Source of the DNA: Desulfomonilia bacterium
GTDB lineage: Bacteria; Desulfobacterota; Desulfomonilia; UBA1062
Direction of reading: 5' to 3'
Assembly: GCA_050014195.1 (NCBI GenBank)
Contig: JBEKDT010000002.1
Span: 128,001 to 192,000 of the forward strand
DNA length: 64,000 bases
Below, one piece after another: positions 17,397 through 22,048 of this stretch; position 1 is the first letter of the stretch; the number at the start of each line of letters is the position of its first letter. A program made the position numbers and the translations under genes. Under the pieces are notes generated by a model that worked only from the letters and a program-made list of their open reading frames with translations, ran no database searches and was not told the origin of the DNA.

Positions 17397-18434
17397 CTAC
17401 GAGAGGATAACCGCCTCACCACCCTTAGGCCGGGACTCGATATAGCCGATGACATCAGCTGATTCTTTGAGCCCTTTCAACCTGAGCATCACATCATCCG
17501 CATCTTTGGGGGATACGACCAGCGCCATGCCGATGCCCATGTTGAAGGTCCGATACATCTCTGCACCTTCGATCTTGCCGACGTCCTGAATGAAGCGGAA
17601 TATGGGAGGGACACCCCAGGAGCCCTTCTCTATCACTGCGGACGAACGGGCAGGAAGCACTCTGGGGATGTTGTCAATAAACCCGCCTCCTGTGATATGC
17701 ACGATGCCCTTGATCTCAAATCCCCTCAGAACATTGAGCACACTCTTCACATAGATTCGTGTCGGGGTCAGGAGTTCTTCGGCTAATGTCTTTCCAACAT
17801 CTTCCAGATAATCATCAATGCGCATCTTGGCGCGCTCGAAAAGGACCTTTCTTACGAGAGAAAACCCGTTGCTGTGCAGGCCCGAGGAGTGTATCCCGAT
17901 GAGGACGTCCTTTGCAGAGATGCGAGATCCATCGATGATCTTGTCACTATCTACAACTCCAACACCGAAGCCTGCAACGTCATACTCATCCTCGCGGTAA
18001 AAACCAGGCATCTCGGCTGTCTCGCCGCCGATCAATGCACAGCCGGCTTCCTGGCATCCTCTGGTGATGCTCGATATAATGACCTTGGCACGATCCAGAT
18101 TGAGCTTGCCGGTGGCAAAATAATCGAGAAAAAACAGGGGTTGTGCCCCCACGACGATGAGGTCATTGACCACCATGGCCACAAGATCAATGCCGATACC
18201 CTCATGGTTGTCGGCCATGAATGCTATTTTCAGCTTGGTCCCCACACCATCCGTTGAGGAGACAAGGACCGGTTCGCGATAATTCCCGATATCCAATTTA
18301 AAGAGGCCGGCAAATCCGCCTATACCGCCTATGACCTCAGGCCCATGGGTGGACTTCACGCTTGACTTGATAGCCCTGACAAGAGTGTTCTGTTTATCAA
18401 TATCAACACCTGCATCACGATACGTCAAAGACAT
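17397..18434 (-). CDS. purM: Phosphoribosylformylglycinamidine cyclo-ligase
   Basis: TYRDAGVD, STDGVGTK, GGETAEMPG, SSGLHSNGFSL and HITGGG are present. Confidence 0.97.
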   Translation of the reverse strand: MSLTYRDAGVDIDKQNTLVRAIKSSVKSTHGPEVIGGIGGFAGLFKLDIGNYREPVLVSSTDGVGTKLKIAFMADNHEGIGIDLVAMVVNDLIVVGAQPLFFLDYFATGKLNLDRAKVIISSITRGCQEAGCALIGGETAEMPGFYREDEYDVAGFGVGVVDSDKIIDGSRISAKDVLIGIHSSGLHSNGFSLVRKVLFERAKMRIDDYLEDVGKTLAEELLTPTRIYVKSVLNVLRGFEIKGIVHITGGGFIDNIPRVLPARSSAVIEKGSWGVPPIFRFIQDVGKIEGAEMYRTFNMGIGMALVVSPKDADDVMLRLKGLKESADVIGYIESRPKGGEAVILS

Positions 18435-18516
18435 GGATACCCCCAACTTCCTACCTACTATATGAGAATATTGAGCTAGTCAATCCGCCAATGAAGGTGA
18501 TGTTTATCACTTTAAG

Positions 18517-18555
18517 AAAAAACAGGATGGCGGTTTGGGCATTGCCCGCCATCCC
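18517..18555 (-). terminator. Rho-independent terminator of the candidate sRNA
   Basis: On the minus strand: GGATGGCGG, 12-nt loop, CCGCCATCC, then TGTTTTTT. Confidence 0.85.
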
Positions 18556-18663
18556 TAGAGGAGGTAGTTAGGAGTTATGTGGCTTTGAAGAGGGGTTCCA
18601 ACTCTCTTCGGTTTCTAGTTTCCTTTAGTTGTTGTTATCGTAATCCCCTTATTCACCAGATGA
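18517..18663 (-). ncRNA. Candidate sigma54-dependent small regulatory RNA (~147 nt)
   Basis: Bounded by a perfect sigma54 promoter and an intrinsic terminator, with no credible ORF. Contains AACAACAAC, a hairpin at 18587-18609 and two anti-SD motifs (ACUCCU, ACCUCCU). Confidence 0.7.
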
Positions 18664-18673
18664 CTACCTAATC

Positions 18674-18689
18674 AGCAATGGTCGTGCCA
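18674..18689 (-). promoter_or_regulatory. sigma54 (-24/-12) promoter
   Basis: Minus strand reads TGGCACGACCATTGCT, an exact TGGCAC-N5-TTGCW consensus. Confidence 0.88.
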
Positions 18690-18787
18690 ACATATCTCAT
18701 GACCATCTATCAATCTGTATTTCCAGGTTGATTTTGATAATTAGCCAAATTCTAACCCACTCAAGTGCTCACCATGAAACCTCAAGG

Positions 18788-18836
18788 TGTATATTTTATA
18801 TACAATGGAGGTATACAGTTGTATAAAAGATATACA
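18788..18836. promoter_or_regulatory. Paired enhancer (UAS) sites for a sigma54 activator
   Basis: TGTATA-N5-TATACA palindromes at 18788-18804 and 18820-18836, 32 bp apart and 100-150 bp upstream of the sigma54 promoter. Confidence 0.78.
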
Positions 18837-18926
18837 CTACCCCTTCATGGCACCATCTCTCAAACAGGGAGATTGCTTGCCGGGAGCGATGGCATGAGAG
18901 TTGAAAAGCATAATCCAGGTAATTTT

Positions 18927-20684
18927 ATGGATAATAGCGTTGGTATGTATTCCAGGAAGGCCTGGATCAAGATATCACCCTGGGTGATCATGGGCTCCCT
19001 CATCGTAATGGTACCTATCTTCATCTTTACAACTATGGAGAGTATCAGGACCCAGAGGAAGAACATGTATCACATGCTCAGTGAGAAGGGCGATGCCCTC
19101 ATGCGCTCATTTGAGGCAGGCACCAGGACGGGTATGATGGGCATAGGTTGGAGCGGGGCCCAGGTCCAGCGCCTCATCATGGAGACTTCGCAGGAGCCGG
19201 ATATCCTCTATATCCTTATAACGGATAAGGATGGGAAGATCGTTGCCCACAACAAGGTTCAGAATATCGGGAAGATGTATGGACTCGATATCGACCAGGC
19301 GCGGTTAGGTCCCATTATCAGGTGGAGGGTGCTCACCGATGATAAAGGCAGGCATGTATTCGAGGTATATCGGAGATTCCATCCTTCCCGAAGCGGGATG
19401 ATAATCCTCAGGCGCAAAACACCCCTCCATGACTGGTTCTACCCCCATATGATCCCGAAGATTGAAAGGCCCCCCATACAGACCATCTATGTGGGGCTTA
19501 ATATGGAACCCGTTGAGCAGATCATTAATGAAAACATAAAACAAAAGATCTTCCTGGCTGTGATCCTGTCGATGTATGGCCTGCTCGGGATCGTCTCCAT
19601 CGTCATTGCACAGAACTACCGGTCCACCAAGGCATCGCTGTCGCGGATCAAGGCCTTTTCAGATACGTTGGTGGACAATATGCCCATAGGGCTCATCTTC
19701 ATCGGCGAGAAAGGCCGCATAGTGACGCTCAATGATGTTTCAGAGAGACTCCTCATGATCGCGGCTTCCGAGGTAAGGGGCAAGAAGGCAAAAGACGTGC
19801 TGCCCGAACAGATCGTAAGCCTCATCGAAGATATTCATGACCCACGTGATATAGCCGTGCGAAACCTCCGTGTTCCCCTGCAGGAAAAGATCATGGTCTA
19901 TGAGGCGAGCGCGAGTTTTTTAACCGATGAAGACAATAATTTCCTTGGCCATATAGTACTCCTGCGGGATATCACCGAGATAGAGCACCTGAAGAGGGAG
20001 ATGGAGCGTAAAGAGAGGCTTGCGGCCATAGGGAGCCTTGCTGCCGGTGTGGCCCATGAAATCAGGAACCCTTTAAGCTCCATCAAGGGTTTTGCCACCT
20101 ACTTCCAGGAGCGCTACCGTGATATCCCTGAAGACCAGAGGATTGCCGGGATCATGGTAGGAGAAGTCGAACGCCTCAACCGGGCGATCAGCCAGCTCCT
20201 GGATCTCTCCCGGCCCATGGATCTGAGAATAAAGACAACCTCGCTGGTTGAGCTTCTTAATCGCTCTGTGGAAATGGTTGAAAAGCAGGCCTTAGAAAAA
20301 GGCATCACTATCGACCGTACGGGGCTTCCTCAGGATCCTTGCAATGCGGAAATAGACCCTGATAAGGTGGGCCAGGTACTGCTTAATCTTTTTCTGAATG
20401 CCTTTGAAGCCATGGAACAAGGCGGTACCCTTACGGTTTCTATCAGGTGTGATGACAAGCCAAACAGATTTATCATCCGTATCTCAGACACCGGCAATGG
20501 AATCGCACATGAAGACCTGCCTCATATATTCGACCCGTACTTCACTACCAAGCAATCCGGGACCGGCCTAGGACTTGCCATTGTCCACAAGATTATGGAG
20601 GCTCATGACGGCGACATCAAGGTGGAAAGTATACCGGGTACAGGGACGACGGTTTCCCTGAACATGCCTGCCGGAGGAGTTTGA
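18927..20684 (+). CDS. Membrane PAS sensor histidine kinase (ZraS/HydH-like)
   Basis: Two TM helices, PAS domain, AHEIRNPL H-box, NLFLNA, DTGNGI and GTGLGL. Start uncertain (18894, 18927 or 18945). Confidence 0.9.
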   Translation: MDNSVGMYSRKAWIKISPWVIMGSLIVMVPIFIFTTMESIRTQRKNMYHMLSEKGDALMRSFEAGTRTGMMGIGWSGAQVQRLIMETSQEPDILYILITDKDGKIVAHNKVQNIGKMYGLDIDQARLGPIIRWRVLTDDKGRHVFEVYRRFHPSRSGMIILRRKTPLHDWFYPHMIPKIERPPIQTIYVGLNMEPVEQIINENIKQKIFLAVILSMYGLLGIVSIVIAQNYRSTKASLSRIKAFSDTLVDNMPIGLIFIGEKGRIVTLNDVSERLLMIAASEVRGKKAKDVLPEQIVSLIEDIHDPRDIAVRNLRVPLQEKIMVYEASASFLTDEDNNFLGHIVLLRDITEIEHLKREMERKERLAAIGSLAAGVAHEIRNPLSSIKGFATYFQERYRDIPEDQRIAGIMVGEVERLNRAISQLLDLSRPMDLRIKTTSLVELLNRSVEMVEKQALEKGITIDRTGLPQDPCNAEIDPDKVGQVLLNLFLNAFEAMEQGGTLTVSIRCDDKPNRFIIRISDTGNGIAHEDLPHIFDPYFTTKQSGTGLGLAIVHKIMEAHDGDIKVESIPGTGTTVSLNMPAGGV

Positions 20685-22048
20685 TGATGGCAATCACGAG
20701 TAACAGAAACATATTGGTAGTGGATGATGACTTCAGCCATCGCACTATGCTCAAGACCTTGCTATCGGGATGGGGCTATGAGGTGAGTGAGGCCGACGAC
20801 GGCCAGGCAGCCGTCAATATGGTCCAGGAAAGACCTTATGACCTTATCCTTATGGACATAAGAATGGTCAAGGTGTCAGGTCTTAAGGCACTTGCAGTCG
20901 TCAAGGAGACCAACCCTGCTATCCCGGTGATCATTATGACTGCTTATTCATCGGTCGATACAGCCATCGATGCCATGAAAAAAGGGGCCTATGAATATCT
21001 GACAAAACCTCTTGACTTTGAAGAGCTGCGTTTGAAGATGGAACAGGCCATGGAACACAGCATGCTCAAAGAGGAGAACCGCCTCCTGCGCGAGCTTGTG
21101 GGTGACCGCTTCGACACCGGGAGCATTATCGGCAGAAGCCCGGCCATGATCCGGCTTCTGGAAACCACTGCCAGGGCCGCTTCCTCGGATGCAACAGTTC
21201 TCATCACCGGTGAGTCGGGGACCGGCAAGGAGATGATTGCCGGCGCCATCCACTTCAATTCTCCCCGGAAAGATCACCCTTTCATAAAGATGAACTGTGC
21301 CGCCATATCCGAAGGCCTGCTCGAATCCGAGCTGTTCGGCCATGAAAAGGGATCATTCACCGGAGCATTGCGCCGTAGAGAGGGCCGCTTCAAACAGGCC
21401 CACGGCGGCAGTCTCTTTTTGGATGAGGTCAGCGAGATGCCGCTGGCCATGCAGGTCAAACTCCTGCGTGTGCTTCAGGAAAGAGAGATCACCCGTGTCG
21501 GCGGCGAAGAGGTGATACCGGTGGACGTTAGGATCATTGCGGCGACCAACAAAGACCTCCCAACCCTTATAAAGATTGCCAGATTCAGGGAAGACCTTTA
21601 CTATCGGCTCAATGTCATCAACCTTTCCGTACCCCCGTTACGTGAGCGCGCCGAGGATATCCCCGTGCTGGCTGAACATTTTTTAAAGATGTTTGCCATC
21701 AAGAACAACAAACCCTTGAAAGGCTTCACACCACAAGCCATGGACCGGCTCATTAAACACCCGTGGCCGGGTAATGTACGCGAAATGATGAATACTGTTG
21801 AGAGCGCTGTAGTCCTATCCAGTTCAACCTTTCTTACGGACGGAGACATCCCCATCTTCAGGGATGAGTCGTACAATGCTCCCCAAGAAATAGGGGCTGC
21901 AAATGCCATCAGTCTTGATGAAATGGAGCGTCTCACCATCTTGAAAACCCTGGAGTCAGTCCAGGGCAACAAGAGCGAGGCTGCAAGAAAGCTAGGGATT
22001 ACACGGGCCACGCTTCATAAGAAGCTGAAAAAGTACTCAGTACCCTGA
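20684..22048 (+). CDS. sigma54-dependent response regulator (ZraR/AtoC/NtrC family)
   Basis: REC domain, GESGTGKE Walker A, ESELFGHEKGSFTGA, WPGNVRE and Fis-type HTH; coupled to the kinase stop. Confidence 0.95.
   Translation: MMAITSNRNILVVDDDFSHRTMLKTLLSGWGYEVSEADDGQAAVNMVQERPYDLILMDIRMVKVSGLKALAVVKETNPAIPVIIMTAYSSVDTAIDAMKKGAYEYLTKPLDFEELRLKMEQAMEHSMLKEENRLLRELVGDRFDTGSIIGRSPAMIRLLETTARAASSDATVLITGESGTGKEMIAGAIHFNSPRKDHPFIKMNCAAISEGLLESELFGHEKGSFTGALRRREGRFKQAHGGSLFLDEVSEMPLAMQVKLLRVLQEREITRVGGEEVIPVDVRIIAATNKDLPTLIKIARFREDLYYRLNVINLSVPPLRERAEDIPVLAEHFLKMFAIKNNKPLKGFTPQAMDRLIKHPWPGNVREMMNTVESAVVLSSSTFLTDGDIPIFRDESYNAPQEIGAANAISLDEMERLTILKTLESVQGNKSEAARKLGITRATLHKKLKKYSVP

Follow-up and report, generated by a model that had tools for sequence, protein, structure and literature searches.

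A predicted small RNA, apparently derived from the 3′ untranslated region of a lost ZraP-like gene, at a sigma-54 promoter beside a two-component pair

Introduction

What does a two-component system (TCS) control when the sigma-54 promoter divergent from its genes leads into no coding sequence (CDS)? This question is raised by a stretch of 64,000 nucleotides (nt) from a Desulfomonilia bacterium (assembly GCA_050014195.1, contig JBEKDT010000002.1, positions 128,001 to 192,000), which we call the window and number from its first letter. Between purM and a sensor kinase gene in the window lies a minus-strand unit that an earlier reading of the letters, referred to here as the original prediction, took for the gene of a non-coding RNA that serves in place of a ZraP-like protein as the output of the kinase and its activator. 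Our comparisons support this idea. They suggest that the unit is probably a stand-alone gene for a predicted small RNA (sRNA) of ~146 nt, and we put the probability at roughly 0.65 that the locus specifies a trans-acting, anti-Shine-Dalgarno sRNA of CpxQ-like origin under the control of sigma-54 and the TCS.

Results

The unit begins with a sigma-54 promoter motif, TGGCACGACCATTGCT, at 18674–18689 on the minus strand, with GG at –24, GC at –12 and canonical spacing. The pattern TGGCAY-N5-TTGCW has this single site in the window compared to 0.27 expected from shuffles. By itself the motif is not significant because 22 of 100 shuffles hold at least one site, and conservation is what counts. The motif is kept in all 14 orthologous loci (L001–L014) and also in L151. 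From the –12 C at 18675, the predicted transcription start falls near 18663–18665. The unit ends in an intrinsic terminator (18517–18556, minus strand) that consists of a 9-bp stem with one additional G-U pair, a 12-nt loop with an invariant GCCC and a U tract. The arms of the stem are GGATGGCGG (18554–18546) and CCGCCATCC (18533–18525), followed by TGTTTTTT (18524–18517). A generic terminator scan missed this hairpin because its loop is longer than 8 nt. No minus-strand open reading frame (ORF) of at least 30 amino acids (aa) occurs within the predicted transcript. The original prediction had named an exact sigma-54 promoter at 18689–18674, a start near 18663, a 9-bp GC hairpin with a U-tract terminator at 18555–18517 and a transcript with no ORF led by a Shine-Dalgarno (SD) sequence, and all of these were found.

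Between promoter and terminator, a leader that is not conserved precedes a core that is. The leader (18600–18664, minus strand, ~65 nt) could not be aligned between CDS-less sub-lineages, and its alignment with the 5′ untranslated regions (UTRs) of sister species suggests that it is the decayed 5′UTR and start region of a lost ZraP-like gene. It holds an A-rich tract and the 5′ arm of a lineage-specific hairpin. This tract and the small hairpin at 18609–18587 are where they had been predicted to be, but both are lineage-specific remnants in the non-conserved leader; the hairpin occurs only in L001–L004, and neither has consensus support. A conserved 5′ hairpin was also considered and was rejected because RNAalifold gives it no support. 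Several species show a possible GAAGR/YCUUC pairing at variable distance, which is unproven.

The core (18557–18599, minus strand) is CU-rich, conserved in three alignments and predicted to be single-stranded. It contains two anti-SD motifs, CUCCU at 18574–18570 and ACCUCCUCU at 18565–18557. The tract from 18574 to 18557 is predicted to be unpaired with a probability of 0.7–0.96, in agreement with the earlier description of an unpaired segment carrying two such motifs. When RNAalifold was applied to 11 family members, it predicted the terminator hairpin alone and left the CU tract and everything upstream unpaired. The fold of the whole transcript was no more stable than that of shuffles (z = –0.36). 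Core and hairpin together present an accessible conserved seed adjoining an intrinsic terminator, the generic arrangement of trans-acting base-pairing sRNAs.

The intergenic region was compared by BLAST with 41 related genomes, of which 17 matched, including all 14 other members of the genus. Only positions 18516–18599 of the window were conserved throughout these relatives. Loci L001–L014 share a common frame consisting of a divergent kinase, two GTATA..TATAC palindromes, the sigma-54 promoter and the CU-rich core with its hairpin. In eight of the 15 genus genomes (L008–L014 and L151 of genome G001), a ZraP/CpxP-family CDS lies between promoter and core, so that the layout is kinase, palindromes, promoter, SD with an ORF of 156–198 aa, 45–95 nt, and then core and hairpin. 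The ORFs of the seven loci L008–L014 are SD-led and 156–176 aa long. Five of the eight ORFs were scanned, and all five passed the cut-off for PF13801 (Metal_resist; the ZraP/CpxP/Spy kind). ZraP was the best NCBIfam match for the two sister-species ORFs scanned, with 51 bits compared to a cut-off of 200. The other seven genomes, including that of the window, have no CDS at this position and a promoter-to-core gap of 78–122 nt. In the CDS-bearing L013 a duplicated copy next to a run of N inflates this distance to 839 nt, which was treated as an assembly gap. Two identical copies of core and terminator stand 227 nt apart around this run (L013/L018, G014:C61:10692–10998), which is probably a scaffolding artefact and not a tandem duplication.

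The leader of the window aligns with the 5′UTRs of the CDS-bearing sisters, with the SD changed from AAGGAG to AAGGGG and the start codon from ATG to ATA. This alignment indicates that the ZraP-like CDS and its ribosome-binding site were lost in place in the clade of the window, whether by deletion or by decay. No close ZraP orthologue was found in the genome of the window, where the only PF13801 paralogues are two distant ones. In a purM tree built from 13 rows (L014 was left out, as purM is not a neighbour there), the seven CDS-less rows formed one clade (support 87/93) that is sister to the CDS-bearing L009, which fits a single loss inside the genus. The module formed by core and terminator follows the ZraP-like gene and not purM, because there is no purM downstream of the module in L014 and purM is ~600 nt away in L008. 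These data support the idea that the output of the kinase/activator pair would be a non-coding RNA and not a ZraP-like protein, in that sister species have a PF13801 gene between the same promoter and terminator and the clade of the window has lost it.

Conservation of the core was measured over 70 alignment columns. Between CDS-less lineages, core identity was 94% (L001/L004) and 88% (L001/L005), compared to 55% and 60% at purM third positions. Across the 45 pairs for which purM could be compared, identity averaged 86% in the core, 82% in purM as a whole and 57% at purM third positions. In the CDS-bearing species the core averaged 84% and the ZraP-like CDS 59% (nt) and 46% (aa), and the core was the more conserved of the two in 21 of 21 pairs. 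None of the seven CDS-less loci of the genus has lost the promoter or the palindromes. Together, these comparisons indicate purifying selection on the CU-rich 3′ module, on the promoter and on the enhancer sites after loss of the CDS.

The module is not confined to this locus. The last 50 nt of the window unit match a second locus in each genome, which in the genome of the window (G000) is at C12:29684–29748. This second locus (L144, G000:C12:29684–29790, minus strand) is an unlinked RNA-like unit of ~90–105 nt that scores 83 bits and ends in ACCUCCUCU and the hairpin. Its 5′ block (..GCATCCTTTT.. / ..GCATCAAAA..) is conserved, and the sequence upstream showed no sigma-54 motif. No other form of the family is as widespread as stand-alone units of this type, of which some genomes have two copies ~4 kb apart (L054/L102, L072/L073). 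We also observed that a repeated element in G000 (e.g. C1:46454, C2:108922, C2:261362, C11:146205, C15:51684) has 12 nt exactly complementary to the 5′ block of the C12 RNA. The element probably represents the beginning of a transposase gene of an insertion sequence, and the simplest reading of the complementarity is one chance match multiplied by copy number.

To extend the family, a 17-base pattern was scanned against the whole collection. This gave at least 120 loci, mostly chance matches in unrelated phyla, of which 24 passed a full-hairpin filter; the scan is a source of extra homologues and no census. From 31 sequences we then built a covariance model for the 3′ module that the loci share. 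It found 1–4 copies in 43 of the 52 genomes of the family, representing nine of 14 genera, and none in the sister family (0 of 70 genomes at E ≤ 1e-4). All 31 module sequences have GCCC in the loop, though it was absent from the search pattern. Over 47 distinct module sequences the hairpin was 94.9% paired. Compensatory change was seen in four of nine stem pairs (7 cells), compared to 1.1 pairs in shuffles and 0–1 with slid partners, in an alignment that was fitted to the model and hence favours structure. The conservation in relatives that the original prediction called for is therefore seen in the promoter (14/14 loci), in the core and terminator, which are kept, and in the stem, with its compensatory changes in 4/9 pairs.

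Twenty weaker matches of the model were fetched with their flanks. Twelve of these lie directly behind a PF13801 gene (all 12 passed the cut-off), and the 11 of those 12 that were printed have a divergent kinase, palindromes and a sigma-54-type promoter upstream. Another seven are located 60–170 nt behind a sigma-54-type promoter with no CDS in between, and six of these adjoin an orthologous kinase. The last one (L166) is behind a 41-codon SD-led ORF. A tree of 27 N-terminal kinase fragments (without L008 and L013, which were too short, and the kinase-less L152) resolved a genus designated g5 into two sister clades (97/92), one with ZraP-like genes and the other with CDS-less units. This topology means that the whole locus was duplicated and that one copy lost its CDS, independently of the genus of the window. 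Promoter and palindromes were kept in five of five CDS-less g5 loci, and some g5 leaders retain a remnant of 7 or 26 codons of the start of the ORF. From the trees and layouts together, there are at least two independent CDS losses, each of which kept promoter, palindromes and module.

Two further observations concern promoters in these relatives. The sigma-54 promoters of g5 have TTGA or TTGT for TTGC at –12 in both locus types and throughout the genus (L160, L163, L165, L167, L168, L155–L158, L161, L170). At another locus (L152, G013:C288:1643–1707), one genome of the CDS-less clade has an extra sigma-54 promoter with a copy of the module ~75 nt downstream. No kinase was found there in the 2.8 kb fetched, and the genome of the window has no counterpart.

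Upstream of the promoter in the window are two 17-bp palindromes of the form TGTATA-N5-TATACA, which are an addition to the original prediction. The proximal one (18788–18804) is ~108 bp upstream of the –24 element and the distal one (18820–18836) is 140 bp upstream of the promoter. Equivalent GTATA..TATAC pairs lie upstream of the promoter in the orthologous loci, and we consider the palindromes to be putative binding sites of a sigma-54 activator. The tandem pair is unique to this locus in the 4.2-Mb genome, which makes the predicted RNA the sole evident promoter target of the regulator. Between these sites and the promoter, at 18731–18750, there is an A/T-rich overlapping palindrome (ATTTTGATAATTA / TAATTAGCCAAAT) at a position expected of a site for a DNA-bending protein; it has no clear match to a consensus.

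The divergent pair is on the plus strand. The sensor histidine kinase (18894–20684) has transmembrane/Cache-like, PAS, HisKA and HATPase domains, and its start was placed by a conserved MRVEKH.. in relatives. It is followed by an NtrC-family sigma-54 activator (20681–22048) with REC, AAA+ sigma-54 interaction (PF00158, E = 7e-73) and HTH_8 domains. The original prediction called the pair ZraSR-like. This holds in that ZraS is the best NCBIfam match of the kinase and ZraR is tied with AtoC as the best match of the regulator, but both proteins are below the equivalog cut-offs, the kinase with 395 bits compared to 479 and the regulator with 528 bits compared to 714 and 760 (760 for ZraR). The regulator also scored under the NCBIfam cut-offs for LuxO and GlrR. 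The genome encodes rpoN (PF04552 at G000:C1).

On the other side, purM (17397–18434, minus strand) is the downstream neighbour and is outside the unit, with its own sigma-70-like –35/–10 elements at 18483–18457 behind the terminator. The purM promoter and leader (18435–18500; ..TTCTCATATAGTAGGTAG..GTTGGGGGTAT..ATG) are G-rich and very highly conserved across the genus loci L002–L013, and this region may be under regulation of its own.

Candidate targets of the predicted RNA were sought in several ways. The motif AGAGGAGG was found ahead of 63 ORFs, whose functions are mixed. A scan for 11- and 12-mer complements was dominated by chance matches and one repeated element. The initiation regions of the kinase and the regulator showed unremarkable pairing (–19.7 and –21.9 kcal/mol, respectively). 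For the purM initiation region, predicted pairing with the core was within the best 5% of background in six of 10 species, with fractions of 0.30–0.82 in the other four. Titration of a CsrA-type protein was rejected because the GGA motifs are confined to the non-conserved leader and the stem. The genome contains hfq, csrA and a gene for an RNase E/G of 489 aa.

We also noted loci elsewhere in the window's genome that bear some resemblance to the family. The second PF13801 paralogue (168 aa; L149/L172, G000:C22:37184–37790) has a related CU-rich 3′UTR and terminator that match the model weakly (E = 0.08), a direct repeat TTTAC-N5-TTTAC upstream and an OmpR-type response regulator downstream. 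The repeat resembles the CpxR box, and this locus may be a cpxP/CpxQ-like unit. Four more sites with a CU-rich tract, a GC hairpin and a T run have weak model scores (E 0.005–0.2; G000 C2:58796–58848, C7:177100–177150, C7:121212–121265 and C12:102250–102307). The C2 site is behind what seems to be the remnant of a C terminus, which resembles the end of the C22 chaperone paralogue.

Discussion

The model that we favour builds on the anatomy, homology, selection, recurrence and phyletic range described above. The ZraS/ZraR-like pair would turn on transcription of the RNA through the sigma-54 promoter and the two upstream enhancer palindromes. In the ancestral state, the same promoter would have driven an mRNA with a gene for a periplasmic chaperone of the ZraP/CpxP family and a 3′UTR ending in the ~40-nt CU tract and the terminator hairpin. 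This transcript may have supplied a chaperone protein and a translational repressor together, like cpxP/CpxQ. After loss of the CDS the promoter would read directly into the 3′ module, and the clade of the window would keep the RNA arm only. The module would be the active part. Its exposed CUCCU and ACCUCCUCU would most likely pair in trans with the SD regions of target mRNAs and block translation initiation, and the terminator hairpin with its U tail would be the end that confers stability and binds a chaperone, presumably Hfq.

Several points weigh against this model. Sequence variation is absent from the five outer stem pairs and from much of the module, which fits a protein-binding site as well as it fits a seed with a terminator. 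Part of the invariance of ACCUCCUCU and the stem arises by construction, because 17 of the 31 model sequences came from the pattern that contains these motifs. The genomes of one genus are related, and the pair counts given above, such as 21 of 21, are non-independent samples. The terminator would in any case be useful as an insulator of purM. In an RNAduplex scan against ~5000 crudely defined initiation regions, the RNA did no better than shuffled RNA (1% quantile –28.3 compared to –27.3 to –29.2). A CCUCC seed would match most SDs, which leaves specificity unexplained.

Some of these points raise the question of whether the module acts in trans at all. It could be an element that works only in cis, in the 3′-end stability and termination of the ZraP-like mRNA and as the insulator of purM; its survival in the window would then mean that transcription from the sigma-54 promoter has still to be halted. 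A strong terminator directly upstream of purM's own promoter, the invariant sequence of the stem and the duplex scan that found no target all agree with such a role. If this were the only role, promoter and palindromes should decay once the CDS is lost, yet they are kept in 7/7 loci of the genus and 5/5 of g5, and the 40 nt before the hairpin, which are dispensable for termination, are conserved above the CDS in every pair compared. The same module also ends an unlinked RNA gene, and in L014, whose neighbour is not purM, it still accompanies the ZraP-like gene. We consider a purely cis-acting element unlikely. It is far less probable still that the unit is a neutral scar, in which a recent deletion of the ZraP-like gene left a promoter and a terminator with no function. 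The leader is visibly decayed and the three closest genomes are 94–100% identical throughout, as would be expected of a recent event, but the loss is older than divergences that have brought purM third positions to 55–60%, yet the core is still at 88–94% and the promoter intact, and the same outcome arose independently in another genus. A role as a leader or attenuator of purM with conditional read-through, or as an RNA targeting the purM initiation region, has little to recommend it beyond the position of the unit on the same strand directly upstream of purM and the favourable pairing in six of 10 species. In the other four this pairing does not rise above background. A conserved promoter belonging to purM itself lies behind the terminator, the module goes with the ZraP-like gene in loci that have purM at a distance or not at all, and no conserved alternative anti-terminator structure was found; we regard such a role as very improbable.

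The remaining explanations concern what the product of the unit would be. It could be an RNA that titrates a protein, or a mimic of the 16S rRNA 3′ tail that competes globally for SDs, with no specific mRNAs as targets. The invariance of stem and loop in sequence and not merely in structure points in this direction, as does the presence of Hfq and CsrA genes. The 3′ end of the genome's 16S rRNA (..ACCUCCUUUCUAUGG) is resembled by ACCUCCUCU with its hairpin, and the predicted pairing lacks target specificity. On the other hand, the conserved part has no repeated GGA or other known titration motif, one copy of a 9-nt tract would be a weak sponge, and resemblance to 16S follows from any anti-SD motif, so that this explanation seems improbable to us as well. 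We give practically no weight to a small protein, encoded either by a minus-strand micro-ORF or by a plus-strand 30-codon GTG ORF (18579–18671) behind GGAGG/AGGAG. A plus-strand start codon occurs 4 nt after AGGAG in four of the five CDS-less loci examined (not L004), but the frame has only 2 codons in L004, the peptides (24–40 aa) are unrelated past residue 4 and have no Pfam match, there is no evident plus-strand promoter or terminator, and the minus-strand transcript lacks an ORF of at least 30 aa. A broader proposal, which is speculative and in our view doubtful, is that one anti-SD module is deployed in three ways, as a stand-alone RNA, as the 3′UTR arm of a chaperone mRNA or, after repeated CDS loss, as the sole output of a TCS, and that it would mimic the 16S tail and compete for strong SD sites. 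In the last of these states, translational repression alone would be the response to an envelope or metal stress signal, and the locus would be a documented and recurrent route from an mRNA to an sRNA gene.

Both TCS-driven sRNAs dependent on sigma-54 and sRNAs derived from 3′UTRs are known kinds; this locus joins the two and shows the transition in close relatives. These natural variants make the idea of mRNA 3′UTRs as a playground for sRNA evolution, put forward in a passage of a review (PMC9438474), directly examinable. Within one uncultured delta-proteobacterial family, the module is present in 43 of 52 genomes; a literature search found no sRNA biology for this lineage.

No known RNA family was recognised in the original prediction, and Rfam scans are consistent with this. 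Positions 18300–19000 of the window, searched to E = 10, gave only two chance-level matches (a snoRNA and a miRNA), and eight homologous loci searched to E = 1 gave none. Full-text searches, with subscription journals outside their coverage, turned up no paper that describes this RNA, and none on sRNAs in Syntrophales, Syntrophus or Smithella. Judged from the comparisons made here, the module represents an undescribed family of predicted sRNAs that documents, twice, the conversion of an mRNA 3′UTR into a stand-alone, regulator-controlled sRNA gene.

Among known systems, CpxQ, an sRNA from the cpxP 3′UTR of Enterobacterales, is similar in that its parent gene is of the broad CpxP/Spy/ZraP chaperone kind under envelope-stress TCS control, and in that the RNA is a 3′UTR ending in the terminator of the gene, as in the sister species here (in the window the CDS is gone). 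The sections of the review on CpxQ describe a chaperone and a 3′-end repressor made from one stress-induced mRNA and give a 3′UTR more conserved than the CDS as a hallmark, which is matched here (PMC9438474). Unlike CpxQ, the RNA proposed here has no sequence relationship to it and no Rfam match, its promoter is of the sigma-54 type with an NtrC-type activator instead of CpxR, and its seed is an anti-SD CU tract. Because the window lacks the parental CDS, the predicted RNA would be a primary transcript.

The neighbourhood is like that of ZraPSR of E. coli and Salmonella, where the activator/kinase pair is divergent from a sigma-54 promoter that, as in the sister species here, drives a ZraP-like gene. 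In Salmonella, ZraR controls divergent sigma-54 promoters for zraP and zraSR, according to a part of PMC4987338. Unlike that system, the kinase, the regulator and the sister chaperone are all below the NCBIfam equivalog cut-offs, and the window has no zraP-like CDS. We know of no 3′UTR RNA described for enterobacterial zraP, and a literature search on this gene turned up none.

In its control, the locus resembles sRNAs dependent on sigma-54 and bacterial enhancer-binding proteins (bEBPs), namely Qrr (LuxO), GlmY/GlmZ (GlrR) and CrcZ (CbrB), with an NtrC-family regulator, a –24/–12 promoter and upstream activator sites. Qrr with LuxO and CrcZ with CbrB are sRNAs adjoining or controlled by NtrC-family response regulators. 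GlmY with GlrR is listed in PMC4987338. The window RNA has no homology to these, and origin by loss of the CDS from an mRNA is not a feature of those families. A seed of comparable kind is found in RsaE/RoxS of Firmicutes, whose exposed C/U-rich motifs are thought to pair with the SDs of several mRNAs. By contrast, RsaE/RoxS differs in phylum, sequence, structure and regulation, and there is no Rfam match here. In a sulfate reducer, Desulfovibrio vulgaris, the mapped target of the response regulator DVU0679 is an adjacent sRNA, Dv_sRNA2, of unknown function, as given in a part of PMC3333781. This is similar in that a response regulator has an adjacent sRNA as its target, a comparison made by description only, but the lineage is another and the sRNA is downstream of the regulator gene. 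Thus, CpxQ is nearest among known systems in function and origin, the sigma-54/bEBP sRNAs in control and ZraPSR in neighbourhood, and by sequence comparison the locus is a member of none of them. These likenesses suggest that the pairing of a periplasmic chaperone with a 3′UTR repressor is not confined to enterobacteria.

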